Part shown: piece by piece, positions 26 to 14,148 of the stretch
Numbering within the stretch: the stretch's first letter is position 1
How the letters are laid out: every line of letters begins with the position of its first letter
Origin: Candidatus Brocadiia bacterium
GTDB taxonomy: Bacteria; Planctomycetota; B143-G9
NCBI GenBank assembly: GCA_041648755.1
Contig: JBAZOJ010000002.1
Coordinates: forward strand, 1 to 58,288
Direction of reading: 5' to 3'
DNA length: 58,288 nucleotides
Notes under the pieces: model-generated
Seen by the model: only the letters and a program-made list of their open reading frames with translations
What the model was told of the DNA's origin: nothing
Databases searched by the model: none
Made by a program: the position numbers and the translations under genes

Positions 26-54
26 ATAAGGGCGTCCCAATGGGACGCCCTTAT
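26..54. terminator. Perfect 14-bp inverted repeat, probable intrinsic terminator of a gene upstream of the window
   Basis: ATAAGGGCGTCCCA-A-TGGGACGCCCTTAT; same AAGGGCG...CGCCCTT style as the hairpins after the large paralogs. Confidence 0.65.
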
Positions 55-307: not shown

Positions 308-3300
308 ATGTTCAGGAACCTTTTCGTCGGATCGCTGCTTTTCCTTGCCGCTTTACTGTGCTTCTCGCCGTACGCGAAGGCTGGCGCTTCTGACTTCAAC
401 GAGAACTGGGACAGCGGATACAGCTACGGTCAGATGATGACCTCTTCGAGTACACCATGGTCTTTCTCATGTCCATCCGGAGTCTGCGGCTGTTCTTACG
501 CGGGAAGCGTTGACGGCTACAACTACAGTTCCTCTCAACTGGCGGGTCACATGGGTTGCCCGTATGGAAACTACTCCGGCTGGGGTGGCTATTACGACTG
601 GTACATGAGCCGCACTTGGTCGAATCCGACTTTTGCCCCCGGGACGCTCAAGTTCTGGTACTACTTGAGCGACGCCAGTCTCGACATCCAATACACGCCG
701 GATGGCTATAACTGGTACATAGCAGCCTATATCTACAGCTATCCGACGTATGATTACGGTTCAACCACGTCGGTCAGCATTCCGTCTGGCACCTTGGGAA
801 TTCGTTTCCACACTTACTGCTACTCTTACGCGTACTACTACGGCGCCTGGATCGACGACATCAAGTTCACAGTTCCCTGGGTGGAAATAGCTTCCATCAC
901 CGGTTACAACGCGACCGACATCAACGCGGGCATCCTGAATCTCACAGCGACTACGACCACCGTTTTTACAGGCGTGGACAAGGTCGAGTGGCAGTACAAG
1001 AAGAGCACCGACACGCTGTGGAGCGCGACGACGACTGATAACACTCCTGTGAACGGGTTCACCTATACGTTGGACACGGGGACCATTACCGACAGCTCAT
1101 TCCAAGTTCGGGCGCGGGCTTACGATGACGGCAACTATGGAGATTGGTTCATCGCCGTAATCCAGGTGCAGAACCTCGGTTCGGTGACATTGACTCCTCC
1201 CAGTCCGACTGGAGGGGACACAATAATGACTCTGTCGTACACTCGACAGTTGGTCGACGCATGGTTCCCCGCGAACAAGTGGGTGCATTCGAGCTTCTAC
1301 TGCAGCAGCAGCTATTACTGGACCGTTGACGTGGCTAATCCGATTCCCTACAGCGGTACGGCTACAAAGGTGCAGTCGAACTTCTACCAGACCTTCACCG
1401 AATACAACGGTTGCTCCAACTACAATTCGTGGAAGCTGAAGCTGTTTTCCGGTTCGGGCGGCAGTTTCACCGAAGTGGCAACGTCCCAGTCGATAAACGC
1501 GGAAAGCGGCTTGAAGGAGTATGATCTGTCCGGCTCTACATTCACGAACCTGGCCAAGAACCTGTTGCTCGGCCAGGAAGCAGGATATTGGGCATGTTAC
1601 AACGCAGGCAATTGGTCCGGCGGCAATTCGCAGAACTGCTGGTACAAGTACTATACCAGTTCGGGTTGGTCCGGGCCCTACACATACTACATTGTGCCTT
1701 TGCGCATCAAGATGAAGAGCTATGGCTCCGACATCGATCAGGTGTCATTCCAGTATTCCGCCGACGGCAGCCCTTGGGTTTCCCTTGGCAACAACCAGAT
1801 CGTAAAGGTCTCCGGTCAGGACAAGTACACAATCAACTGGGCCTCCTGGGCAGTTGACAGCAGCAACGTCAGTTTCAGGGTCCGCCTGCACTACGGGCCA
1901 GTGTGGAGCGGGACGTATACCTTTGGACCGTATCCAGTGCGCAACAGGATTGACCTGACCTACAACATCGCGAAGAGCCCCAGCGCGCCCGGGAGTTTCA
2001 CACCGGTTGCGGGCACGCAGTTGACGATAGGCTCCACGGCCACGACGGTTCCCTATTCCACGAATACAGGCTACTACGGGACATTCACGATTTCCGCCCC
2101 GCAATACATCATGGATGTGGGCGGAACTCAGTGGCGATTTGACTACTGGAGCGATGGCGGCGGGATAACCCACGAAATGCAGGTCCTGCCGAAGATGACC
2201 GGGACAATTACAGCCTTCTATGCGAGACAGGTCTACTTCGCAGTGGACTCAATTGTCAGCAATTACGTGGCGCCCCCGGCGGGGTACTACGAGCCCGGAA
2301 CCTTGATTCAGATACAGGTTCCGCAGTACAGCAACGTGGATTCTGTCACGAGATACCGCTACGTGTCGATGGACATTCCCTCGATCAGCATAAACACGAC
2401 CGAGACATGGTACAGCTTCAATCTGCCAGCCAGAACGATTGTGACCCTGAACTGGCAGTTGGAGTACTACTTCACGGTTCAGAACGACAAGGGAGTCGGC
2501 ACCGGCACCGCAAACGGGTGGTACTCTGACGGTGCTACCGTCAGCTACTCCGTGGCGCAGACCCTTGACAATGGCACAGGCGCGCGGTTTGACAACCGCG
2601 GGTACAACATCAACAGCGCGTTCGGCGCCGCAAGCCGCAGCTATACTGGTACGCTCACACAGCCGATAACGATCCAGTGGATCTGGCAGCAGCAATATAA
2701 CGTGGTAGTTTCGAGCAACGTCGGCACGACCACACCGGCGTCGGGCTGGTATGATGCGGGAACGGTGCTCAGCTTGAACTCCATAGTACCGGGCAGCACA
2801 TCCACGGTGTCGATGACGTTCAACGGCTGGGCGGGCAGCGGAACGGGGTCGGTCACGACAAGTGGCGGAAGCCCGGCCGTTCCGATAACCGTGAACGGAT
2901 ACATTACCGAGGTCGGAACCTGGACGGTATCGTTCAAACTCGACCTCATCGCTGTTAACGGACTCGGTTCGTTCTCGCCGGATGCCACAGGCTGGTACCC
3001 GGCCGGCACGATGGTCACGATAAACATAGTATCTCCGACTTCACCGACCGGTTCACGTTACGTACCGCAGTGGATAGGCGAAGGCAACGGAGCATTTTCC
3101 TCAATCGCGGCACCTGATGTACCGGTGTCCGTGACGGTGAAGATGGACAACCCGATCAAGGAATCAGTGCAGTGGCACCTGCAGCACTCACTGACGATCG
3201 AGAACCCTGATGGCTACGGGACGCAGAACCCGGCCGCAGGCGTTTACTGGCACATGAACGGTGATAAGATAAGTGGCGTGTGCCAATACATCGTCGGCAG

Positions 3301-4711
3301 CAAGATGTGCGACGGGTACTACGGCACCGGCTCGATAACCAACGGCACTAAGCCGTACTTCTCGGGCTTCATCACAGCGCCGACGCTGGTTCGGTGGGCC
3401 TGGAGGGACAGGCCGACCGCTGGCGATCAAAGTTGGAACACGTCGGAACTCATCATCAACATCGACACTCCTTCCCAGATGTCTGCCTCCCGCGACACAG
3501 CGGGTCATCCTGTAGTTGCTTATTACGACAAGACCTATCACGCGATCAAGATCGCAGTCAAGGACGAAAGCGGTTGGACCGTCAGCACATTCCGCGAGAA
3601 CGTCTCTTACCTCAACTGGCTGGACCTGTATGTTGACACCGCGAACAACCCCCATATCACCTGCTACGCAGTACAGGACAGGATTCTCCGTTATTACGGA
3701 GCGTTCGAGACGGTAAAGGTGGAGTTCTCGCCGGTGACACCGGACGTCATCCAGACAGTGGGCGATTCCGGTCGCAATCCGCACATTGCCGTCAACACGA
3801 TGGGCGATGTCTTTATCTCGTTCTACGACATGGCAGAGAACGCGCTAAAGGTTGTCTCGCGCATGCACGATTCGAGCGACTGGTCAGCGGAAACGGTGGA
3901 TTCCGAAGGTAACCCTGGAATGTTCAACGCTATCGCAATTCGTGAAATAGACGGGATGCCAGTCATTGCCTACCACTCGCTGACTCTCCGCAGGCTCATG
4001 TATGCCGAGAGCAGCGAAGGCGGATGGGTGCTGAGCATTGTTGACGACGATGGTGCACAGGGCTTCTACCCCTCGCTGGCCTTGTCTCCGGACGGCACTC
4101 CTATGATCGCATACCAGGACGTTACTGACAGCAACAAGATGCACCTGAAGTTCGCAACCCGCGTTGGCGATCAGTGGAGCACCGCGCTTGTCGATTCAAC
4201 GGATCGCTGCGGTTTCAACACCTCAATCGTTGCCGATGAGAACGGGGTCATCCATATCGGTCACCACGACGAGCACAACTTGAGATATGCTCGTTTTAAT
4301 GGTTCAGCCTGGGAAACCATGGCTCTCGGTGGAACGAACGTAGTTGGAAACACTGCGGTCGTGCTGGGAACGAACGGCTATCCGCAGCTTGTCTACCTCG
4401 ATGGAGGGAAGATCACCACGATTTCCGCGAAGAGTAGCACCGGGAGTGGCGGAGATGGCGGAGATGGCGGCGACGGCGGGACAACACCGACAACCAGCGG
4501 AGGCGGCGGATGCTTTGTGGCAACGGCTGCCTTTGGCTCGCTTGCAGCCTCTGAAGTCAACGCACTGACTTCTTGCAGAGATGCCGTGGTTGCTGGTTCA
4601 GAATCCGGCGCGGCCCTCGTAAGAGCCTATTACACCGTAGCCCCGAGCGCTGCGGACTCAATCCGCGCAAACGGCGCAATCAAGGCCTTCGTAAGAAGCC
4701 TGCTCGATTAG
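308..4711 (+). CDS. Large secreted surface protein, paralog 1 (1467 aa): signal peptide, two Tyr-rich variable domains, divergent InlB-B/Flg_new-like repeats, beta-propeller, Gly/Asp linker, CFI-box-CTERM-like tail
   Basis: ATG at 308 after AAGGGGTG; signal peptide MFRNLFVGSLLFLAALLCFSPYAKA; repeats GYYEPGT/GWYSDGA/GWYDAGT/GWYPAGT; PxIAYxD propeller blades; ends TTSGGGGCFVATAAFGS...FVRSLLD. Confidence 0.85.
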   Translation: MFRNLFVGSLLFLAALLCFSPYAKAGASDFNENWDSGYSYGQMMTSSSTPWSFSCPSGVCGCSYAGSVDGYNYSSSQLAGHMGCPYGNYSGWGGYYDWYMSRTWSNPTFAPGTLKFWYYLSDASLDIQYTPDGYNWYIAAYIYSYPTYDYGSTTSVSIPSGTLGIRFHTYCYSYAYYYGAWIDDIKFTVPWVEIASITGYNATDINAGILNLTATTTTVFTGVDKVEWQYKKSTDTLWSATTTDNTPVNGFTYTLDTGTITDSSFQVRARAYDDGNYGDWFIAVIQVQNLGSVTLTPPSPTGGDTIMTLSYTRQLVDAWFPANKWVHSSFYCSSSYYWTVDVANPIPYSGTATKVQSNFYQTFTEYNGCSNYNSWKLKLFSGSGGSFTEVATSQSINAESGLKEYDLSGSTFTNLAKNLLLGQEAGYWACYNAGNWSGGNSQNCWYKYYTSSGWSGPYTYYIVPLRIKMKSYGSDIDQVSFQYSADGSPWVSLGNNQIVKVSGQDKYTINWASWAVDSSNVSFRVRLHYGPVWSGTYTFGPYPVRNRIDLTYNIAKSPSAPGSFTPVAGTQLTIGSTATTVPYSTNTGYYGTFTISAPQYIMDVGGTQWRFDYWSDGGGITHEMQVLPKMTGTITAFYARQVYFAVDSIVSNYVAPPAGYYEPGTLIQIQVPQYSNVDSVTRYRYVSMDIPSISINTTETWYSFNLPARTIVTLNWQLEYYFTVQNDKGVGTGTANGWYSDGATVSYSVAQTLDNGTGARFDNRGYNINSAFGAASRSYTGTLTQPITIQWIWQQQYNVVVSSNVGTTTPASGWYDAGTVLSLNSIVPGSTSTVSMTFNGWAGSGTGSVTTSGGSPAVPITVNGYITEVGTWTVSFKLDLIAVNGLGSFSPDATGWYPAGTMVTINIVSPTSPTGSRYVPQWIGEGNGAFSSIAAPDVPVSVTVKMDNPIKESVQWHLQHSLTIENPDGYGTQNPAAGVYWHMNGDKISGVCQYIVGSKMCDGYYGTGSITNGTKPYFSGFITAPTLVRWAWRDRPTAGDQSWNTSELIINIDTPSQMSASRDTAGHPVVAYYDKTYHAIKIAVKDESGWTVSTFRENVSYLNWLDLYVDTANNPHITCYAVQDRILRYYGAFETVKVEFSPVTPDVIQTVGDSGRNPHIAVNTMGDVFISFYDMAENALKVVSRMHDSSDWSAETVDSEGNPGMFNAIAIREIDGMPVIAYHSLTLRRLMYAESSEGGWVLSIVDDDGAQGFYPSLALSPDGTPMIAYQDVTDSNKMHLKFATRVGDQWSTALVDSTDRCGFNTSIVADENGVIHIGHHDEHNLRYARFNGSAWETMALGGTNVVGNTAVVLGTNGYPQLVYLDGGKITTISAKSSTGSGGDGGDGGDGGTTPTTSGGGGCFVATAAFGSLAASEVNALTSCRDAVVAGSESGAALVRAYYTVAPSAADSIRANGAIKAFVRSLLD
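4448..4480 (+). repeat. Low-complexity Gly-Gly-Asp repeat linker (9-bp unit); similar linkers at ~9121-9155 and ~13820-13858
   Basis: GGCGGAGATGGCGGAGATGGCGGCGACGGCGGG encoding GGDGGDGGDGG. Confidence 0.7.
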
Positions 4712-4737
4712 CCAACTTCTGGGCACGAACAGATATT

Positions 4738-4767
4738 AAGGGCGCTCCGTCGGGGCGCCCTTTTTCA
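4738..4767 (+). terminator. Rho-independent terminator after paralog 1
   Basis: AAGGGCGCTCC-GTC-GGGGCGCCCTT followed by T tract. Confidence 0.85.
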
Positions 4768-4928
4768 TTCCGGATCGGGAATTGCGGAATCGGGAACATC
4801 GCAGGACCTGATCTGCCAACTCAGTCTCCCTCCAACACCAATGTGAACAGCGTTTGAGTGAAGAGCGACTCGGCAGATGGCGCATCCGGCCGATCCGAAG
4901 AGCACTTGGCAAGGCCACGAAAAAACTC

Positions 4929-4957
4929 TTGACTTTTCCCCTCTGTCGCACTATATT
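4929..4957 (+). promoter_or_regulatory. sigma70-type promoter of paralog 2
   Basis: TTGACT-17 bp-TATATT; RBS AAGGAG before ATG 5000. Confidence 0.75.
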
Positions 4958-4999
4958 CCGCAACGATAGCCAGAACGCAGTATCAATAAGGAGCGAGGC

Positions 5000-7900
5000 A
5001 TGTTCAAAAATGCAGTGGTTGGATTCTCCCTTGTCGTGGCCGCACTGCTGGGCTTTACGCGGAGCGCGAACGCTGCAAGTTCCTGGGACGTCAGCGAGAA
5101 ATGGGATAGCGGTTACAGCAACGGCCAGGCGATCTACAGCTACTCGACGCCATGGTCATCCTACACCACCTACAGCGGCTACCCGATGTACAACTCCAGA
5201 AGCGCGGACGTTGACAGCTACTACTACTCATCGTCTTCGTACGCGGCGCATATCGGGTGTCCGTATGGCTATTACATGTACACAGGCTTCTACGACTGCT
5301 ACCTGATCTATACTTGGTCATCACCGACGCTTGCAGCCGGTACGCTGACATTCTGGTACTACGTGAGATACTCGAGCCTCGACGTCCAATACACGACCGA
5401 TGGCTCAACCTGGTACACTGCCGCCACCCAGGCAAATTACTACTCCTACGTGTACGGCGCAAACACCTCTGTCACAATTCCCGCCGGAGCCAGGGCGATT
5501 CGCTTTCACAGCTACGCCTATCTGTACTACTACTACTATGGGGTGTGGATAGACAACGTCAAGTACGTGATGCCATGGATCGACGTCAATTCCATCAGCG
5601 GATACAACAGCACGGACATCAATGCGGGCGTACTCAGTCTTACTGCCAACGTCACTTCAGTGCTGACCGGTGTCGACTTTGTCGAGTGGCAATACAGGAA
5701 GAGCACGGACACTCTATGGAGTGACGCGACTACCGACAACACCCCTGAAGATGGCTTTACATGCGCGCTCGACACATCTGGCATTACAGACAACGCATTT
5801 CAGGTGCAAGCCCGAGGCTACGATGACGGCAACTATGGCGAATGGGCGGGAACAACGATGCAGGTCCAGAATTTCGCCTCGGTTGCCCTATCATCGCCTG
5901 ATGTCGGGGGTGGAGATACTGCAATGACCCTTTCGTATGTCCGAACACTTGTGGATGTGTGGCATCCCGCGAATCAGTGGACTCATACAAGACTGTATAG
6001 CACCAGCAGCAACTACTCGGCGGTTGACGTATCGAAGCCAATCCCTTACAGCGGTACCGCTACGAAGGTTCAGACGAACTTCTCATACACATACTCCTCC
6101 AGCTACAACAACTGGGCTCTGAAGCTTTACTCCGGGTCAGCGGGGAGCTTCACGGAAGTGGCCTCCTCCAATACAATAACTGCCGAAATAGGGCTCAAGG
6201 AATACGATCTCTCCAGCACCACTTTTTCGAACCTGTCGAAGAACCTGCTGCTGGGGATATACGGTGGGCGCTGGATGATGTACGATCCGTCCGGATACTT
6301 CACAGGCAATACGCAGAGCTGCTATTACAAGTCCAGCACGACCTGGTATGGGCCGTATACGACCTACAAGGTGCCTTTGCGAATTAAGATGAGTAGCTAC
6401 GGCGCAGATGTGGATCAAGTCTCATTCCAGTACCGGGCGGACGGTGGTCCATGGATTTCGCTGGGCAACAGCCAGATCGTCAAGATTGCCAGTTTGGACA
6501 AGTTCGCCATCAATTGGGCTTCCTGGGCTGTCGACAGTGACGAGGTGGAATTCAGGGCTCGATTCCATTATGGCCCCGTCTGGAGTGGAACGTATACATT
6601 CGGTCCGTATGCCGTGCATAACCGGATCGATCTGACGTACAACATCGCTAAGAGTCCTGGCGCCCCGGGCATGCTGAATCCGGTCTCGGACACAGAATTG
6701 ACAATCGACGCGCTCCCCCGGACAGTGCCCTATTCCGCAGACACGACCTACTACGGGGCGTTTACCATAGACGCTCCACAATACATCTCTGACATAGATG
6801 GCACACAATGGCGATTTGACTATTGGAGCGATGGCGGAGCCATGAGCCACGAAATGCAGGTGCTTCCGAGGATGAACACGGTGATCACGGCGTTCTACGC
6901 GAGGCAGACTTACTTTGGCGTTGACTCATACGTGAGCGATTTCGTCGCACCTCCTGCGGGCTACTACGAGCCCGGGACGTTGATTCAGGTGCAAGTTCCC
7001 AAATACAGTTACGTGTCCTCGGACACAAGATACCTCTTCGTTTCGATGGAAATGCCTACATTGAACGTCACTACCACAGAGAAGTGGTACACGTTCAACC
7101 TGACGGCCAGGACGATCGTCACCTTGAACTGGCAACTCGAGTACTACTTTGCAGTTCAGAACGACAAGGGAGTCGGCACCGGCACCGCAAACGGGTGGTA
7201 TTCTGAGGGAACGGCCGTCAGCTACTCGGTTGCATCGACGCTCGACAATGGCGCAGGCGCACGGTTAGACAATCGGGGCTACAACCTGAACGGTGCATTC
7301 GGCGCCGCGAGCGGCAGCTACTCCGCGCCATTGAGTTGCCCAATCGTGATCCAGTGGATCTGGCAGCAGCAGTACAATGTCTTGATTTCGAGCAATGTTG
7401 GCACGAGTATACCGGCTTCAGGCTGGTACGATGCAGGAACGACGCTGAGCTTGAATTCCATCGTGCCAGGGAGCACTTCCACGGTATCGACTGTCTTCAA
7501 TGGATGGTCAGGAACTGGCACAGGCGCAGTAACTACCGCTGGTGGTAGTCCTGCAATACAGATGACGGTGAACGGATGTATCACGGAAGTAGGCACTTGG
7601 AGCGTTTCATACAAGCTCGACCTCATCGCTGTAAACGGCCTCGGAGGCTTCATGCCGGATGCCACGGGCTGGTATCCTGCGGGAGCAATGGTCACGATCA
7701 ACATCGTTTCCCCAAGTGCGACATCGGGTTCGCGTTACATTCCGCAGTGGATAGGCGAAGGCAATGGAGCTTTGTCCTCGATCGCGGCTCCGGACGTTCC
7801 GGCATCCGTGACGGTGAAGATGGATAACCCGATCAAGGAGTCAGTGCAGTGGCACCTGCAGCACTCACTGACGATCGAAAATCCCGATGGCTTTGGAACG

Positions 7901-9391
7901 CAGAATCCTGCTGTCGGAACATACTGGCTCTTCAACGGCTCCAGGGCCAGCGGAGTATGTCAGTACATAGTCGGGGACAAACTGTGCGATGGCTACTTCG
8001 GCTCCGGCTCCACAGTTTCGGGTTCCAAGCCGTACTTCTCATGCTTCATCACGGCACCGTCTCTGGTACGTTGGGTATGGAAGGACAAGCCGCCTATTGG
8101 TGAGCAGAGCTGGAACACATCAGACCTCATTGTCTCCGTGGGTTCGCCGAGTCATATGGCTGCTTCCCGCGACACATCCGGACATCCGGTTGTGGCTTAC
8201 TACGATGCTGAGGCGAAGGCAATCATGATAGCTGTCAAGGGCGATAGCTCCTGGGCGGTAAGCACTCTTTGCGATGGCGTCGATAACCTGGACTGGCTCG
8301 ATCTGTATGTCGACAGTGCGAACAATCCACATGTCACCTACTACGCCATTTCCGACAGGATCCTACACTATGTTGGTGCCTTCGAAGAAGCCAAGACTGA
8401 CTCATTGACAGGTCTCGCGGATGTCATACAGACCGATGGCGACTCCGGGCGCAATCCGCACATCGCTGTCAATACGATGGGCGATGTTTTCATCGCGTTC
8501 TACGACATGTCCGAGAACGCACTGAAAGTAGCCTCTCGGGCCCATGACGAGACCATTTGGACCGAAGAGACAGTTGACTCAGAAGGCAATCCCGGGCTAT
8601 TCAACGCAATCGCGATCCGCGAAATAGACGGAATGCCGGTAATCGCATACCACTCGCTTACGTTGCGCCGTCTGATGTACGCGGAAAGCACCGAGGGTGG
8701 ATGGCAGTTGAGCGTTGTTGACTCGGATGGTGATCAGGGATTCTATCCCTCACTTGCTCTGACGCCCGATGGCGTGCCGATGATTGCCTATCAGGACGGG
8801 ACCGACGGCAACAACCTGCATTTGAAGTTCGCAACCCGGAGCGGCGGGCAATGGTTCACGGTTCTTGTTGACTCAACTGCGGGCTGCGGTTTCAATACGT
8901 CTATCGCTGTTGACCCGATCGGGGTGATCCATATCGGGCATCATAATCTCGGCAATCTCAGATACGCCCGCTACGACGGCGCATCCTGGGAACTCTCTTC
9001 TCTGGGAGGTAACAGAGTTATTGGCGACACGGCAGTTGTGCTGGGTTCCAACGACTATCCGCAGGTGGTCTACCTTGACGAAGGCAAGATCGCTACGGTT
9101 GCCGCGAAGGGCGGCGCAAGTGGCGGCGATGACGGTGATGGTGGCGACGGCGACGGAACAACCCCGACGACCAGCGGTGGCGGCGGCGGATGCTTCGTGG
9201 CAACGGCGGCCTTTGGCACGCTTTCAGCCTCTGAAGTCAACGCACTGACTTCTTGCAGGGACGCCGTAGTTGCCGGTTCTGGATCCGGCTCTGCCCTCGT
9301 AAGAGGCTATTACGCCGTAGCTCCGAGCGCTGCGGATCCGCTCCGCTCAAGCAGCGCAATCAGGGCTGTCGTACGAAGCTTGCTCGATTAG
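5000..9391 (+). CDS. Large secreted surface protein, paralog 2 (1463 aa), the most divergent copy
   Basis: Signal peptide ending SANA; collinear with paralog 1 along its length; ends SGGGGGCFVATAAFG...VVRSLLD. Confidence 0.85.
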   Translation: MFKNAVVGFSLVVAALLGFTRSANAASSWDVSEKWDSGYSNGQAIYSYSTPWSSYTTYSGYPMYNSRSADVDSYYYSSSSYAAHIGCPYGYYMYTGFYDCYLIYTWSSPTLAAGTLTFWYYVRYSSLDVQYTTDGSTWYTAATQANYYSYVYGANTSVTIPAGARAIRFHSYAYLYYYYYGVWIDNVKYVMPWIDVNSISGYNSTDINAGVLSLTANVTSVLTGVDFVEWQYRKSTDTLWSDATTDNTPEDGFTCALDTSGITDNAFQVQARGYDDGNYGEWAGTTMQVQNFASVALSSPDVGGGDTAMTLSYVRTLVDVWHPANQWTHTRLYSTSSNYSAVDVSKPIPYSGTATKVQTNFSYTYSSSYNNWALKLYSGSAGSFTEVASSNTITAEIGLKEYDLSSTTFSNLSKNLLLGIYGGRWMMYDPSGYFTGNTQSCYYKSSTTWYGPYTTYKVPLRIKMSSYGADVDQVSFQYRADGGPWISLGNSQIVKIASLDKFAINWASWAVDSDEVEFRARFHYGPVWSGTYTFGPYAVHNRIDLTYNIAKSPGAPGMLNPVSDTELTIDALPRTVPYSADTTYYGAFTIDAPQYISDIDGTQWRFDYWSDGGAMSHEMQVLPRMNTVITAFYARQTYFGVDSYVSDFVAPPAGYYEPGTLIQVQVPKYSYVSSDTRYLFVSMEMPTLNVTTTEKWYTFNLTARTIVTLNWQLEYYFAVQNDKGVGTGTANGWYSEGTAVSYSVASTLDNGAGARLDNRGYNLNGAFGAASGSYSAPLSCPIVIQWIWQQQYNVLISSNVGTSIPASGWYDAGTTLSLNSIVPGSTSTVSTVFNGWSGTGTGAVTTAGGSPAIQMTVNGCITEVGTWSVSYKLDLIAVNGLGGFMPDATGWYPAGAMVTINIVSPSATSGSRYIPQWIGEGNGALSSIAAPDVPASVTVKMDNPIKESVQWHLQHSLTIENPDGFGTQNPAVGTYWLFNGSRASGVCQYIVGDKLCDGYFGSGSTVSGSKPYFSCFITAPSLVRWVWKDKPPIGEQSWNTSDLIVSVGSPSHMAASRDTSGHPVVAYYDAEAKAIMIAVKGDSSWAVSTLCDGVDNLDWLDLYVDSANNPHVTYYAISDRILHYVGAFEEAKTDSLTGLADVIQTDGDSGRNPHIAVNTMGDVFIAFYDMSENALKVASRAHDETIWTEETVDSEGNPGLFNAIAIREIDGMPVIAYHSLTLRRLMYAESTEGGWQLSVVDSDGDQGFYPSLALTPDGVPMIAYQDGTDGNNLHLKFATRSGGQWFTVLVDSTAGCGFNTSIAVDPIGVIHIGHHNLGNLRYARYDGASWELSSLGGNRVIGDTAVVLGSNDYPQVVYLDEGKIATVAAKGGASGGDDGDGGDGDGTTPTTSGGGGGCFVATAAFGTLSASEVNALTSCRDAVVAGSGSGSALVRGYYAVAPSAADPLRSSSAIRAVVRSLLD

Positions 9392-9419
9392 CTTGCGCGT
9401 TCGGATCTGACCTGATTGG

Positions 9420-9448
9420 TGGGGCGGCCCTTTGGGACGCCCCATTCT
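9420..9448 (+). terminator. Probable terminator after paralog 2
   Basis: GGGCGGCCC-TTT-GGGACGCCC stem with one mismatch, then ATTCTT. Confidence 0.55.
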
Positions 9449-9631
9449 TCGTCTCCGGCAATGCGCGTTCTCACAAGTACGGGGAACTTGCCGCTCGTTA
9501 CAATGGGCGGTTTGACCTACTGCAATGAGGCCCGAGCCAAAAGAACCTGCGAGATTTGTGAAACGCTCCCGGTACCGCGCAACGCCATAGGCTGCACCAC
9601 GTTCCATCAGATTGTCCAAGGGCGAAAAGTC

Positions 9632-9659
9632 TTGACTTTTGCATTGGTGCCATTATAGT
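9632..9659 (+). promoter_or_regulatory. sigma70-type promoter of paralog 3
   Basis: TTGACT-16 bp-TATAGT; RBS GAAGGGG before ATG 9701. Confidence 0.7.
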
Positions 9660-9700
9660 ACGCGTGGATAATGAGAATCCCAACGCAGAAGGGGTGTGCC

Positions 9701-12700
9701 ATGCTCAGGAACGTCGCTGTCGGATTGCTGCTTTTCCTGGCTGCTTTACTGTGCTTCTCGCCGTACGCGAAGGCCGGTGCATCAGACTTTACCGAGAATT
9801 TCGACGGCGGAAGCTACTACTACGGCCAGATGATGACTCCCAGCGATTCGCCTTGGGCTTTCACAAATGATGAAGGCATCTGCTGTGGCGGTTCGTACGG
9901 CGGTAGCGTTGACGGCTACAACTACAGTTCGTCCCAGTTGGCTGGCCATTTGGGTGTGCCCTACGGGAATTACGCTTACTATTACTATGGCAACTGGTAT
10001 ATGGCCCGCACATGGTCCAATGCCACCTTTGCCCCCGGGACGCTCAAGTTCTGGTACTACCTGTACGACGCCAGTCTCGACGTCCAATACACACCGGACG
10101 GCTACAACTGGTATACTGCGGCATATGTCTACAGCTATAACACGTACGTGTACGGCGCAACCACATCGGTCACTATTCCTTCCGGCAGCAAAGGGATTCG
10201 ATTCCACACCTACTGCTACTCTTACTACTACTGGTACGGCGCCTGGATCGACGACATCAAGTTCACCGTCCCCTGGGTGGAAGTGGCCGACATCACCGGC
10301 TACAACAAGACCGATATCAACGCGGGCGTCCTTAACCTCACAGCTACAACCACCACCGTTTTCACCGGCGTGGACAGGGTCGAGTGGCAGTACAAGAAGA
10401 GCACCGACACGCTGTGGAGCGCGACGACGACAGACAACACCCCTGCGAACGGATTCACGTATTCGCTCGATACCGGGACCACGACAGATGGCGCATTTCA
10501 GGTTCGAGCGCGAGCCTACGATGACGGAAACTACGGGGACTGGTTCATCGCGACGATGAGTCTACAAAACCTTGGCTCGGTTACCTTGACGCCACCCAGT
10601 CCGACTGGTGGCGATACGATTATGACTCTGTCGTACACTCGACAGTTGGTCGACACTTGGTATCCTGCGAACCAGTGGAACAACTCCTCCCAGTATTGCA
10701 GCAGCGGAATGTACTGGACCGTTGACGTGGCCAACACGATTCCCTACAGCGGGACTGCTACGAAAGTGCAGTCCAATTTCTCCTACATCCATAATTGCTC
10801 AAGCTACAACTACTGGAAGCTGAAACTCTTCTCAGGCTCCGCAGGCAGCTTTACTGAGGTCGCCACTTCCCAGTCGATATATGCGGAAATCGGCCTGAAG
10901 GAGTATGACCTCTCCAGTTCCACCTTCTCCAATCTTTCCAAGAACCTCCTCCTCGGTCAGGAAAATGGCTACTGGGGTTGCTACAACGCAGGCAACTGGT
11001 CCGGCAACACCCAAAGCTGCTGGTACAAGTACGCTTACAACACCTACTGGTACGGACCGTACTCTCAGTATATTGTGCCTTTGCGCATAAAGATGAAGAG
11101 CTATGGATCCGACATTGACCAGGTGTCATTCCAGTATTCCGCCGACGGCGGCCCCTGGGTATCGCTTGGCAACAACCAGATCGTAAAGGTCGCAGGGCAA
11201 GACAAATACACAATCAACTGGGCCTCCTGGGCAGTTGACAGCAACAACGTCAGTTTCAGGACACGCCTGCACTACGGGCCGGTGTGGAGCGGAACATATA
11301 CTTTCGGGCCGTACCCCGTGCGCAACAGGATTGACCTGACCTACAATGTCGCAAAGAGCCCCAGCGCACCCGGAAGCTTCATACCGGTTGCGGGCACGCA
11401 GTTGACGATAGGCTCCACGGCCACGACGGTTCCCTATTCCACGAACACAGGCTACTACGGGACATTCACGATTTCCGCCCCGCAATACATAATGGATGTG
11501 GGCGGGACTCAGTGGCGGTTTGACTACTGGAGCGATGGCGGCGGGATAACACACGAGATGCAGATCCTGCCGAAGATGGCCGGGACAATTACAGCCTTCT
11601 ATGCGAGGCAGGTCTACTTTGCGGTTGACTCAATTGTCAGCAATTACGTGGCGCCCCCGGCGGGGTACTACGAGCCCGGAACCTTGATTCAGATACAGGT
11701 TCCGCAGTACAGCAACGTGGATTCGGTCACGAGATACCGCTATGTGTCGATGGACATTCCCTCGATCAGCATAAACACGACCGAGACATGGTACAGCTTC
11801 AATCTGCCAGCCAGAACGATTGTGGCCCTGAACTGGCAGTTGGAGTACTACTTCACGGTTCAGAACGACAAGGGAGTCGGTACCGGCACCGCAAACGGAT
11901 GGTTCTCTGACGGCGCTACCGTCAGCTACTCCGTGGCGCAGACGCTTGACAATGGCACAGGCGCTCGGTTTGACAACCGCGGGTACAACATCAACAGCGC
12001 GTTCGGCGCCGCGAGCCGCAGTTACACGGGCACGCTCACGCAGCCGATAACGATCCAGTGGATCTGGCAGCAGCAGTACAACGTAGTGATATCGAGCAAT
12101 GTCGGCACGACCACCCCGGCGTCGGGCTGGTATGATGCGGGAACGGTGCTCAGCCTGAACTCCATAGTACCGGGCAGCACATCCACCGTGTCGATGACGT
12201 TCAACGGATGGGCAGGCAGCGGAACCGGATCGGTCACGACAAGTGGCGGAAGCCCGGCCGTTCCGATAACCGTGAACGGATACATTACCGAGGTCGGAAC
12301 CTGGACGGTATCGTTCAAGCTTGATCTCATTGCCGTAAACGGGCTCGGTTCGTTCTCACCGGACGCCACGGGCTGGTATCCCGCGGGAACAACGGTCACG
12401 ATTAATATCGTTGCCCCAAGTGCGCCAACGGGATCGCGCTACATTCCGCAGTGGATAGGCGAAGGCAACGGAGCGTTTTCCTCAATCGCAGCACCTGATG
12501 TACCGGTATCCGTGACGGTGAAGATGGACAACCCGATCAAGGAATCGGTGCAATGGCACCTGCAGCATTCGCTGACGATCGAAAACCCCGATGGCTACGG
12601 GACGCAGAACCCGTCCGAAGGTGTTTACTGGCACATGAACGGTGACAAGATAAGTGGCGTGTGCCAATACATCGTTGGCAGCAAGATGTGCGACGGGTAC

Positions 12701-14092
12701 TACGGCACCGGCTCGATAACCAACGGCACTAAGCCGTACTTCTCGGGCTTCATCACAGCGCCGACGCTGGTTCGGTGGGCCTGGAGGGACAGGCCGACCG
12801 CTGGCGATCAAAGCTGGAACACGTCGGAGCTAATCATCAACATCGACACTCCTTCCCAGATGTCAGCTTCCCGCGACACGGCGGGTCATCCAGTTGTAGC
12901 TTACTACGACAAGACGGCAAAAGAGATCAAGATTGCCGTCAAGGACGAAAGCGGCTGGACGGTGACCACTTTCCGCGACAACATCGAGTACCTCAACTGG
13001 CTGGACCTGTATGTTGACACCGCGAACAATCCCCATGTCACATGCTACGCCGTCAGGGACAGGATTCTGCACTATTACGGAGCATTTGAGACGGTAAAGG
13101 TGGAGTTCGCTCCTGTGACACCGGACGTCATCCAGACCGTCGGTGACTCAGGGCGCAACCCGCACATTGCCGTCAATACGATGGGCGATGTTTTCATTTC
13201 GTTCTACGACATGGCCCTGAACGCACTGAAAGTCGTATACCGAATGCACGGTTCGAGCGACTGGATCATCGAAACGGTTGACGCAGAGGGTAATCCTGGA
13301 ATGTTCAACGCTATCGCGGTTCGTGAAATCGACGGGATGCCTGTCATTGCCTACCACTCGTTGACTCTCCGCAGGCTTATGTATGCTGAGAGCACAGATG
13401 GCGGATGGGTGCTGAGCACGGTTGACGCTGACGGCGCACAGGGCTTCTTTCCCTCACTGGCCCTGGCTCCGGACGGCACGCCGATGATCGCATACCAGGA
13501 CGTAACGGACAGCAACAAGATGCACTTGAAATTCGCAACCCGCGTGGGCGACCAGTGGAGCACCGCGCTTGTCGATTCAACGGATCGCTGCGGCTTCAAC
13601 ACCTCAATCGCAGCCGACGAGAACGGGGTCATCCATATCGGTCACCACGACGAGCACAACCTGAGATACGCGCGGTTCAATGGCTCCGCATGGGAGACAA
13701 TGTCCCTCGGTGGCACGAACGTGGTCGGAAACACTGCTGTCGTCCTTGGGGCAAATGGCTATCCGCAAGTAGTCTACTTCGACGGAGGCAAGATCACCAC
13801 GATCTCGGCTAAGAGCGGGAGCGGTGGCGATGGCGGTGACGGCGGCGATGGTGGTGGCACAACCCCGACAACCAGCGGTGGCGGCGGCGGATGCTTCGTG
13901 GCAACGGCAGCCTTTGGCTCGTTTGCAGCCTCCGAAGTCAGCACGTTGACATCCTGCAGGGATGCCGTGGTCTGTGGTTCCGAATCCGGCGCGGCCCTCG
14001 TCAGCACCTATTACGCCATGGCTCCGAGTGCTGCGGATTCAATCCGCTCAAGCTTTGCTATCAGGGCTTTCGTGAGGACGCTGCTCAAGTAA
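9701..14092 (+). CDS. Large secreted surface protein, paralog 3 (1463 aa), nearly identical to paralog 1 in the stalk
   Basis: ATG 9701 aligns with the paralog 1 start (MLRNVAVGLLLFLAALLCFSPYAKA); same architecture; ends GGGGGCFVATAAFGS...FVRTLLK. Confidence 0.85.
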   Translation: MLRNVAVGLLLFLAALLCFSPYAKAGASDFTENFDGGSYYYGQMMTPSDSPWAFTNDEGICCGGSYGGSVDGYNYSSSQLAGHLGVPYGNYAYYYYGNWYMARTWSNATFAPGTLKFWYYLYDASLDVQYTPDGYNWYTAAYVYSYNTYVYGATTSVTIPSGSKGIRFHTYCYSYYYWYGAWIDDIKFTVPWVEVADITGYNKTDINAGVLNLTATTTTVFTGVDRVEWQYKKSTDTLWSATTTDNTPANGFTYSLDTGTTTDGAFQVRARAYDDGNYGDWFIATMSLQNLGSVTLTPPSPTGGDTIMTLSYTRQLVDTWYPANQWNNSSQYCSSGMYWTVDVANTIPYSGTATKVQSNFSYIHNCSSYNYWKLKLFSGSAGSFTEVATSQSIYAEIGLKEYDLSSSTFSNLSKNLLLGQENGYWGCYNAGNWSGNTQSCWYKYAYNTYWYGPYSQYIVPLRIKMKSYGSDIDQVSFQYSADGGPWVSLGNNQIVKVAGQDKYTINWASWAVDSNNVSFRTRLHYGPVWSGTYTFGPYPVRNRIDLTYNVAKSPSAPGSFIPVAGTQLTIGSTATTVPYSTNTGYYGTFTISAPQYIMDVGGTQWRFDYWSDGGGITHEMQILPKMAGTITAFYARQVYFAVDSIVSNYVAPPAGYYEPGTLIQIQVPQYSNVDSVTRYRYVSMDIPSISINTTETWYSFNLPARTIVALNWQLEYYFTVQNDKGVGTGTANGWFSDGATVSYSVAQTLDNGTGARFDNRGYNINSAFGAASRSYTGTLTQPITIQWIWQQQYNVVISSNVGTTTPASGWYDAGTVLSLNSIVPGSTSTVSMTFNGWAGSGTGSVTTSGGSPAVPITVNGYITEVGTWTVSFKLDLIAVNGLGSFSPDATGWYPAGTTVTINIVAPSAPTGSRYIPQWIGEGNGAFSSIAAPDVPVSVTVKMDNPIKESVQWHLQHSLTIENPDGYGTQNPSEGVYWHMNGDKISGVCQYIVGSKMCDGYYGTGSITNGTKPYFSGFITAPTLVRWAWRDRPTAGDQSWNTSELIINIDTPSQMSASRDTAGHPVVAYYDKTAKEIKIAVKDESGWTVTTFRDNIEYLNWLDLYVDTANNPHVTCYAVRDRILHYYGAFETVKVEFAPVTPDVIQTVGDSGRNPHIAVNTMGDVFISFYDMALNALKVVYRMHGSSDWIIETVDAEGNPGMFNAIAVREIDGMPVIAYHSLTLRRLMYAESTDGGWVLSTVDADGAQGFFPSLALAPDGTPMIAYQDVTDSNKMHLKFATRVGDQWSTALVDSTDRCGFNTSIAADENGVIHIGHHDEHNLRYARFNGSAWETMSLGGTNVVGNTAVVLGANGYPQVVYFDGGKITTISAKSGSGGDGGDGGDGGGTTPTTSGGGGGCFVATAAFGSFAASEVSTLTSCRDAVVCGSESGAALVSTYYAMAPSAADSIRSSFAIRAFVRTLLK

Positions 14093-14113
14093 TTTTTCGG
14101 ACCAGCATTGACA

Positions 14114-14148
14114 GAAGGGCGGCGACTTTTGCCGCCCTTCTCTTTTCT
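14114..14148 (+). terminator. Rho-independent terminator after paralog 3
   Basis: GAAGGGCGGC-GACTTTT-GCCGCCCTTC then TCTTTTCT. Confidence 0.85.

Follow-up and report, generated by a model that had tools for sequence, protein, structure and literature searches.

A tyrosine-rich head domain of predicted jelly-roll fold and separate evolutionary history in tandem secreted proteins of a planctomycetal lineage

Introduction

Can tyrosine-rich domains at the N-termini of tandemly encoded bacterial proteins be regarded as natural counterparts of antibody binding sites, in which a fixed framework carries hypervariable loops? The question is raised by a stretch of 58,288 nucleotides, here called the window, which constitutes contig JBAZOJ010000002.1 (C2 in our numbering) of assembly GCA_041648755.1, a metagenome-assembled genome (MAG) of a Candidatus Brocadiia bacterium from the phylum Planctomycetota (3.75 Mb on 383 contigs, 89% complete). 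Bases 308–14092 of the window harbor three collinear genes on the + strand, termed A, B, and C, that encode proteins of 1,463–1,467 amino acids with 70–89% identity. All three proteins start with typical signal peptides ending AKA↓G or ANA↓A and terminate with a Gly/Asp linker followed by a CFI-box-CTERM domain. In an initial annotation, bases 392–860 had been described as a variable domain with antibody-like loops and, together with the equivalent regions of B and C, had been interpreted as a natural variable binding scaffold. This region falls within the first domain of the mature protein A after the signal peptide, which we term the head. Our results lend partial support to a different reading, according to which the modeled head presents a conserved tyrosine-rich binding surface on a lectin-like fold and not a fixed framework with hypervariable loops.

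Composition of the Head

The marked region is in frame in all three collinear paralogs, the four framework motifs listed for it are all present in the alignment of A, B, and C, and the strings rich in Tyr, Ser, Gly, and Trp that had been quoted from A are exact (Table 1). The genome contains six copies of the head (A–F), in which tyrosine amounts to 15.3–21.2% of the residues; the remainder of these proteins contains about 6%, and the average over open reading frames (ORFs) of the genome with at least 200 codons is 2.5%. With 26–36 tyrosines per head of 169–171 residues, the tyrosine richness pointed out in the initial annotation is far beyond chance (binomial P 2e-13 to 8e-23 against the background of 2.5%), and all six heads rank among the eight most tyrosine-rich 170-residue windows of 4,364 ORFs. 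Tryptophan is enriched about fourfold, and lysine and arginine together contribute only 1–3.5%.

With regard to tyrosine-rich sequences elsewhere in the genome, the highest content in any 170-residue window (28%) is found in another CFI-box paralog, encoded on contig C112 by an ORF that starts at nucleotide ~7019 (1,392 amino acids). It lies in N-terminal copies of GWY..G/C.GW.G “B-repeat-like” modules, e.g., ADYYYYVGSGNPYDG...GYYYDGYWIY, so that a tyrosine-loaded membrane-distal end is seen once more in the CFI-box family, here with another fold. The next most tyrosine-rich ORFs are large YD-repeat (Rhs-like) proteins of 1,546–1,885 amino acids on contigs C9 and C47 that are unrelated to the head family. 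A second patch with 17% tyrosine (alignment columns 451–500) is present in protein A itself (window ~1650–1760, residues ~450–485) as well as at the equivalent positions in B and C, e.g., CWYKYYTSSGWSGPYTYYIVPLRIK, and is located in a second domain that varies between the copies.

Predicted Fold and Sequence Relationships

AlphaFold2 modeled head A as a beta-jelly-roll (predicted local distance difference test, pLDDT, 86.9; predicted template modeling score, pTM, 0.87; 13 sequences) and head B with ten strands in the same order (pLDDT 91.8, pTM 0.89; 25 sequences), the blocks of lowest confidence (31–50 and 61–70) coinciding with the indel-rich segments. When the model of head A was compared with the PDB using Foldseek, 73 matches at E ≤ 1e-3 with template modeling (TM) scores of up to 0.64 assigned it to one fold superfamily: almost all of the 50 best matches are modules of the galactose-binding domain (GBD) type, i.e., cleaved-adhesin, MAM, and many carbohydrate-binding module (CBM) families, with E-values from 3e-6 to 1e-4 for gingipain, MAM, and CBM structures. 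The list is headed by the cleaved-adhesin domains K1/K2/K3 of the gingipain Kgp (E ~3e-6), followed by the hyaluronan-binding module of pneumococcal hyaluronate lyase (CBM70), and also includes MAM domains (meprin, enteropeptidase, neuropilin, Limulus astacin) and members of CBM61/29/4/22/16. Among viral structures, Foldseek retrieved CBM-like tail-fiber modules.

On the sequence level, matches to F5_F8_type_C were obtained for 6 of 13 members of the head family, with a best E-value of 3.7e-5 that is still below the gathering threshold; three members scored singly reached about 15–19 bits with PF00754, for which gathering is set at 28.2. In a profile search of the PDB, the F5/8-C-like N-terminal region of a hexosaminidase (residues ~49–151; 3.6e-5) and Kgp K2 (5.7e-3) were retrieved, and the motifs SxDGxxW, RYIR, and (I/L)DDIxF were aligned. 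Neither PF07675 (cleaved adhesin) nor PF00629 (MAM) matched any of the 13 members at E ≤ 10, and neither head A nor a head from genome G001 was matched by NF038128 (choice-of-anchor J, threshold 30 bits) at E ≤ 1.

Two paralogs bridge the gap between the heads and recognized families. When the whole genome was searched with NF038128, the sole match (6e-11) was the C49 paralog, which carries a true choice-of-anchor-J domain at the position taken by the tyrosine-rich heads in the other proteins; hhalign aligned the head profile with this domain at 94.5% probability (E 7.8e-8), over 62 C-terminal columns only. The C176 paralog contains the same domain as the heads (profile E 4.7e-10) with an ordinary tyrosine content of 5.6% and exhibits ETDPNGSLSPGG in the HI loop, where the heads have YxYxYYYYG. 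It thus keeps the fold without the accumulated tyrosines, hereafter the tyrosine crown, showing that the crown is not needed for folding. Based on the AlphaFold2/Foldseek matches, the weak sequence matches, and the bridging C49 and C176 paralogs, the modeled head is a derived, highly diverged, tyrosine-loaded branch of the galactose-binding-domain-like jelly-roll superfamily, with choice-of-anchor-J, MAM, gingipain cleaved-adhesin, and F5/8-C (CBM32) domains as its nearest relatives.

Conserved and Variable Parts of the Head

For an analysis of conservation, 25 non-identical homologous heads were compared with the strand assignment (DSSP) of the model. Entropy per column averages 1.88 for strand positions vs. 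1.71 for all others; the corresponding values for the six copies of this genome are 0.96 and 0.95, with a domain mean of 0.96. Tyrosine occurs at similar frequency in strands (15.9%) and outside of them (14.0%). About 21 columns have tyrosine in the majority of the 25 heads, and at model positions 46, 64, 74, 77, 94, 104, 125, 151, and 153 it reaches 76–96%. Aspartate is invariant at model positions 4, 10, and 158, where it may contribute to a Ca2+ site.

The YxYxYYYYG segment at the end of strand H and in the putative HI loop had been listed among the variable parts, a description that the alignments contradict: it is of equal length in A, B, and C, its entropy among the six paralogs is only 0.56 and thus below the domain mean, and the tyrosines at positions 151 and 153 are present in 96% and 84% of the 25 homologs. 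Above-average variation between copies was confirmed only for the first tyrosine-rich loop (segment 62–74), where entropy lies mildly above the mean (1.18), and for the cysteine-bearing segment at positions 29–37, the most variable of the head (1.63). Differences in length are real as well and reside mostly in the irregular N-terminal third, with indels concentrated after positions 25, 33–36, 42, 59–62, and 66.

Placement of Tyrosine on the Predicted Fold

The distribution of tyrosine over the fold was deduced from strand order and jelly-roll topology and not from model coordinates. A jelly roll formed by a long hairpin wrapped into two sheets would explain the DSSP strands 87–105 and 112–133, joined by an invariant DG..W turn, and homolog indels at 96–99 and 123–126 were read as corners of the ribbon. 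In such an arrangement, loops BC (58–69), DE (96–98), FG (121–123), and HI (148–153) would share one end of the domain, while loops CD (79–86), EF (106–111), and GH (134–138) plus the C-terminus would be located at the opposite one. Along this axis, tyrosine content falls from 28% in the putative top half to 6% in the opposite one (Spearman rho 0.52, p 8e-9), and the putative top loops contain 36% tyrosine vs. 1% in the bottom loops. In strands C, D, and H (70–78, 87–96, and 139–147), tyrosines follow the non-core alternation, corresponding to the outer face. Judged from strand order, the tyrosine-rich BC and HI loops should both be located at the same end of the sandwich, distal to the exit of the stalk. 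Discoidin/CBM32 domains bind their ligands through loops at the pole that faces away from the termini.

Entropy did not show any significant polarity along the same axis (rho 0.04–0.16), and a per-site comparison across homologs, as had been proposed along with the variable-scaffold interpretation, revealed no excess of variation in loops or at the tyrosine-rich end, an outcome that had been named in advance as speaking against that interpretation. On the deduced topology, polarity toward one end of the domain is seen for tyrosine and not for variability as such.

Selection and History of Head and Body

Nei-Gojobori ratios of non-synonymous to synonymous substitution rates (dN/dS) were calculated in sliding windows and by segment; few homologs were available and dS was often saturated. 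Ratios of 0.14–0.47 were found over the head vs. about 0.05–0.2 elsewhere; segments picked afterwards as the most variable ones gave 0.19–0.44 and the framework 0.09–0.12. Neither approach gave any sign of positive selection, with values never near 1 and the frequent saturation of dS to be kept in mind.

Among the close paralogs A–D, the head is the most diverged part, with 50–77% identity vs. 68–91% in the body and entropies of 0.58–0.78 in head windows vs. 0.24–0.64 elsewhere. Part of this contrast is due to homogenization of the bodies. Comparison of A and C yielded dS values of 0.03–0.35 in the central repeats (window 2250–3450 vs. 11650–12850; residues ~650–1050) and of 0.6–1.5 in the head, as would be expected if the body, and not the head, had recently undergone gene conversion. 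In comparisons of the distant paralogs E and F with the others the relation is reversed, heads being 40–61% and bodies 31–34% identical.

In the tree of the heads, the six copies from this genome form one group (support 92/95; 93/85 when more sequences were included), and so do the two heads of genome G003 (86/95). In the tree of the bodies, A–D grouped with proteins P0008 and P0013, and E grouped with P0010 and P0012 (100/100). When approximately unbiased (AU) tests were run on the head alignment, the clades of the body tree were rejected (p 1.2e-5 and 1.6e-4); run on the body alignment, they rejected a clade of this genome’s own copies (p 3e-6). In a sliding comparison, the identity of E to B/D was 0.53–0.74 over the head (columns 41–200) and 0.08–0.4 after column ~200, the reverse being true for E and its body ortholog P0010 (34–46% in the head, rising to about 50% thereafter), such that the switch sits at the border between head and body. 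The incongruent trees, the AU tests, and the breakpoint at the domain border indicate that heads have been exchanged or homogenized among paralogs within a lineage and that the bodies represent anciently split classes.

Targeted hypermutation by a diversity-generating retroelement (DGR) was considered and rejected as a source of head variation. The genome contains two reverse transcriptase loci (C213 and C86), and blastn searches with the head DNA, covering the two contigs in question as well as the entire genome (assembly 89% complete), returned paralogs only, i.e., no template-like repeat of any head on the reverse transcriptase contigs or elsewhere. Cassette-like partial copies of the head were not found in the genome either.

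Distribution of the Head

The head is rare. An exhaustive phmmer search over 1.84 billion representative proteins retrieved 11 sequences, two of them marginal, and a search of 90% clusters gave nothing beyond the copies of this genome. In GTDB, the head is present in all four genomes of the window’s class (Planctomycetota MAGs) and in none of ~400 other sampled genomes of the phylum, two partial matches of low score being the only exception. The relatives are listed as “Planctomycetota bacterium” MAGs and originate from hydrothermal sediment and salar soil (Guaymas Basin, Salar de Ascotan).

A sister genus (G002) features the head as three consecutive copies inside single proteins of ~1,800 amino acids (Table 1). 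These copies are rich in serine and tyrosine (SSSSSSSYSGW) and contain a lineage-specific PNxGTWGxYCS insert.

Gene Layout and Neighboring Features

The features of the locus are compiled in Table 1. The ATG at 308 assigned as start codon of A aligns with those of B and C and is preceded by a conserved AAGGGG ribosome-binding site. At the other end of the proteins, NF041770 (CFI_box_CTERM) scored 57–61 bits in A, B, and C (60.8 in A) at a cut-off of 40, which establishes membership in this family; the C-terminal domain of ~65 amino acids is opened by a CF(I/V)ATAA motif that is likewise present in E, F, and P0008–P0013. Besides the CFI-box domain, Pfam and NCBIfam recognized nothing in the full-length proteins, and sequence searches of the PDB with full-length proteins produced chance matches to the Gly-rich linker and nothing else. 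A literature search returned nothing usable on CFI-box-CTERM or on gingipain adhesin structures, and the papers found on choice-of-anchor domains deal with other subfamilies.

Given the promoter matches before B and C and the terminator-like hairpins after all three genes, A, B, and C look like separate transcription units on sequence grounds. At the very start of the contig (window 1–60), a stop codon (CGC TGA) is followed by a GGGCGTCCC...GGGACGCCC hairpin homologous to those after A and B, and a further paralog may therefore sit just upstream of the contig edge. Downstream of A–C, the window contains genes of a Gram-negative type, encoding a protein with an LptA/LptD_N-type domain and a ComEC-type competence protein. 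More than 20 loci across the genome share only the C-terminal part of the proteins (repeat region, propeller-like region, and CFI-box) and differ in their N-terminal modules; they constitute a large modular surface-protein family within a genome of 3.75 Mb.

Table 1. Positions of the three paralogous genes, their head domains, and associated features (window coordinates unless another genome is given).
Feature	Position	Strand	Description
Gene A	308..4711	+	1,467-aa secreted protein with signal peptide, Tyr-rich head, Ig-like and repeat body, Gly/Asp linker, and CFI-box-CTERM (translation, alignment)
Signal peptide of A	308..382	+	MFRNLFVGSLLFLAALLCFSPYAKA, AKA↓G cleavage-type site; putative, from hydrophobic core and AxA motif
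Head of A	383..889	+	169 aa, 15.4% Tyr; contains the initially marked region
SCPSGVCGC segment	467..493	+	Most variable and least confident part of the head; block pLDDT 68–70; indels among homologs
GCPYGNYSGWGGYYDWY	554..604	+	Putative BC loop and start of strand C; Y/S/G-rich, length-variable; block pLDDT 75
YCYSYAYYYG	815..844	+	End of strand H and putative HI loop; model positions 145–154; conserved Tyr motif
Terminator-like hairpin after A	4738..4762	+	
Sigma-70-like promoter match before B	4929..4957	+	TTGACT-17-TATATT; consensus match only, conserved in upstream alignment
Gene B	5000..9391	+	1,463 aa, paralog of A
Head of B	5075..5587	+	171 aa, 20.5% Tyr; profile match 2.4e-70
Terminator-like hairpin after B			Similar to that after A; alignment only
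Homologous sigma-70-like site before C	9632–9659		Consensus match, upstream alignment
Gene C	9701..14092	+	1,463 aa, paralog of A
Head of C	9776..10285	+	170 aa, 17.5% Tyr
Terminator-like hairpin after C	14113–14141		Similar to that after A
Terminator-like hairpin at contig start	~29–50		Similar to that after A
Triple-head loci of genome G002	C21 (40554–42020), C49 (14552–16051); L019, L021, L023, L025, L028		Three consecutive heads

Possible Function of the Head

The reading that we consider somewhat more probable than its negation is that of an adhesin- or lectin-type head with a conserved, nearly uncharged, tyrosine-rich pole as contact surface. The head would be the membrane-distal domain of large cell-surface proteins, and its tyrosines, along with Trp, Ser, and Gly, would cluster opposite the stalk exit, in loops BC, DE, FG, and HI and in the neighboring parts of the strands, to form a crown that contacts the partner. 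Within a genome, heads resemble each other even where their bodies diverged anciently, and between genomes they differ, which points to a common and lineage-specific partner; this may be the heads of neighboring molecules or cells (homotypic contact) or one shared surface or glycan ligand. Differences between A, B, and C would represent ordinary paralog divergence under purifying selection that affects mainly the BC loop and the N-terminal third with its irregular structure and that may tune binding without a dedicated generating mechanism. From the interpretation as a natural variable binding scaffold, the folded, secreted N-terminal module of a binding-type fold is thereby retained, and hypervariability is given up in view of the conserved tyrosines and dN/dS values below 1.

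Several points weigh against an adhesin- or lectin-type head. It scores below every curated family threshold. Assignment of loops to top and bottom, solvent exposure of the tyrosines, and the ribbon corners derive from jelly-roll topology and indel positions, and many of the conserved tyrosines could be structural, serving packing instead of ligand contact. Convergent composition could inflate the clustering of heads by genome, in spite of the site-heterogeneous model applied and the sharpness of the breakpoint.

The antibody-like scaffold, in which a constant framework would hold Tyr/Ser/Gly/Trp loops diversified among copies for many targets, is improbable in our view. Segments of the required composition and of differing length do lie between conserved motifs, the loops named in its favor probably share one pole of the domain, no other part differs as much among A–D as the head, and the most variable segments have dN/dS ratios two to four times those of the framework. 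However, neither elevated loop entropy nor dN/dS above 1, by which a hypervariable immune-type scaffold would be recognized, was found in a head with only six copies per genome; the second of the named segments is more conserved than average, template repeats near the reverse transcriptases and cassette-like partial copies were not found in the 89% complete assembly, and in distant paralogs the heads, which group according to genome, have changed less than the bodies. Conserved tyrosine positions, low charge, purifying selection, and likeness within a genome would suit a structural or assembly module without external ligand, the tyrosine surface of which packs heads into a lattice or caps the N-terminus of the stalk, with copy differences resulting from neutral drift. 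MAM domains, moreover, oligomerize and mediate homophilic contacts. We regard such a module as unlikely, albeit as the most probable of the alternatives: it overlaps with the homotypic version of the adhesin-type head, from which it is inseparable by sequence; the solved structures most similar to the head are, with few exceptions, modules that bind ligands or glycans or belong to adhesins and proteases; and the C176 paralog does without the crown.

That tyrosines serve as chemical handles for oxidative cross-linking or adhesion of the dihydroxyphenylalanine (DOPA) type instead of forming a non-covalent surface is suggested by composition only, since about 20% Tyr together with Gly and Ser recalls adhesive proteins. 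We deem this very improbable, because the tyrosines occupy fixed positions in a well-folded domain and not disordered repeats. No tyrosinase was detected in the genome, weak evidence given that it is 89% complete and that the search had no positive control, the control genomes being silent too; and if the habitats of the relatives (hydrothermal sediment and salar soil) are anoxic, as we assume, such chemistry would be unexpected. An artifact, either a quirk of composition or a mis-called frame, has nothing but the unusual composition in its favor and is practically negligible in the face of long ORFs conserved in four genomes under purifying selection, confident AlphaFold2 models, and in-frame continuation into a recognized C-terminal domain.

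A more speculative extension of the adhesin-type head is self-recognition, in which a natural “minimalist” Tyr/Ser surface on a MAM-like fold would act as a homotypic kin-adhesion code, its lineage-specific crown being common to all surface-protein paralogs of a lineage and maintained on otherwise unrelated bodies by head swapping or gene conversion. We rate this as rather unlikely; if it were true, head–head contacts would hold cells or filaments of one lineage together.

Comparison With Known Systems

The top structural matches, the cleaved-adhesin domains of the gingipain Kgp (K1/K2/K3; PDB 4itc, 3km5, 3m1h; PF07675; TM 0.52–0.64), resemble the head as jelly rolls of ~170 amino acids in a secreted surface protein, and the last-strand motif LLDDIQF aligns to WIDDIKF together with the preceding PAGTKYVAFRHY. 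On the other hand, identity is as low as 12–16%, Pfam does not detect PF07675 in the heads, and the gingipain domains are internal repeats of a protease polyprotein, in contrast to the single N-terminal head described here. Choice-of-anchor-J domains (NF038128) occupy the same place, immediately behind the signal peptide, in proteins with a C-terminal sorting-type domain, but the tyrosine-rich heads lack a match at E ≤ 1 and their N-terminal two thirds cannot be aligned by profile.

F5/8 type C domains (CBM32, PF00754) are connected to the heads by weak but repeated sequence matches and by shared SxDGxxW and RY(I/V)R motifs, and their ligand-binding end corresponds to that at which tyrosine would accumulate in the heads according to the topology. 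Scores under gathering, top Foldseek matches to other families of the GBD clan, and heads in which no sugar-binding residues are identifiable set the two apart. MAM domains (meprin, enteropeptidase, neuropilin, RPTPmu; PF00629) are extracellular, match the fold at E 1e-5 to 2e-4, and, by our own reading, exhibit the same order of motifs (FWY...L.V.Y...G..W...IRF...IDDI); their homophilic contacts would fit the genome-specific likeness of heads. Unlike the heads, they form an animal family with a different composition, and the heads have neither a Pfam match nor the conserved MAM cysteines. Synthetic “minimalist” Tyr/Ser binding sites from libraries of antibody complementarity-determining regions (CDRs) and monobodies are similar with regard to a presumed contact surface dominated by tyrosine and accompanied by Ser, Gly, and few charges. 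They consist, however, of hypervariable loops selected for each target, whereas the tyrosines of the heads are conserved, reach into strands, and show no excess variation, so that the comparison is an analogy of chemistry only.

Significance

What is new here is a lineage-restricted head of extreme composition; its fold and the kind of surface module are already known, and no new diversity-generating system or mechanism is involved. A common lectin/adhesin fold has been pushed far in composition, with one residue in five being tyrosine, mostly at fixed positions and seemingly collected at one pole, and is still confidently predicted to fold. If the tyrosine-rich pole is the binding face, it would be a natural counterpart of the tyrosine-dominated interfaces obtained from minimalist libraries. 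The head also provides a clean case of modular surface-protein evolution, in which its history runs apart from that of the body with a breakpoint at the domain border, and this separate history singles out the head as the unit on which lineage-specific selection acts, in a class of the Planctomycetota about which little is known.

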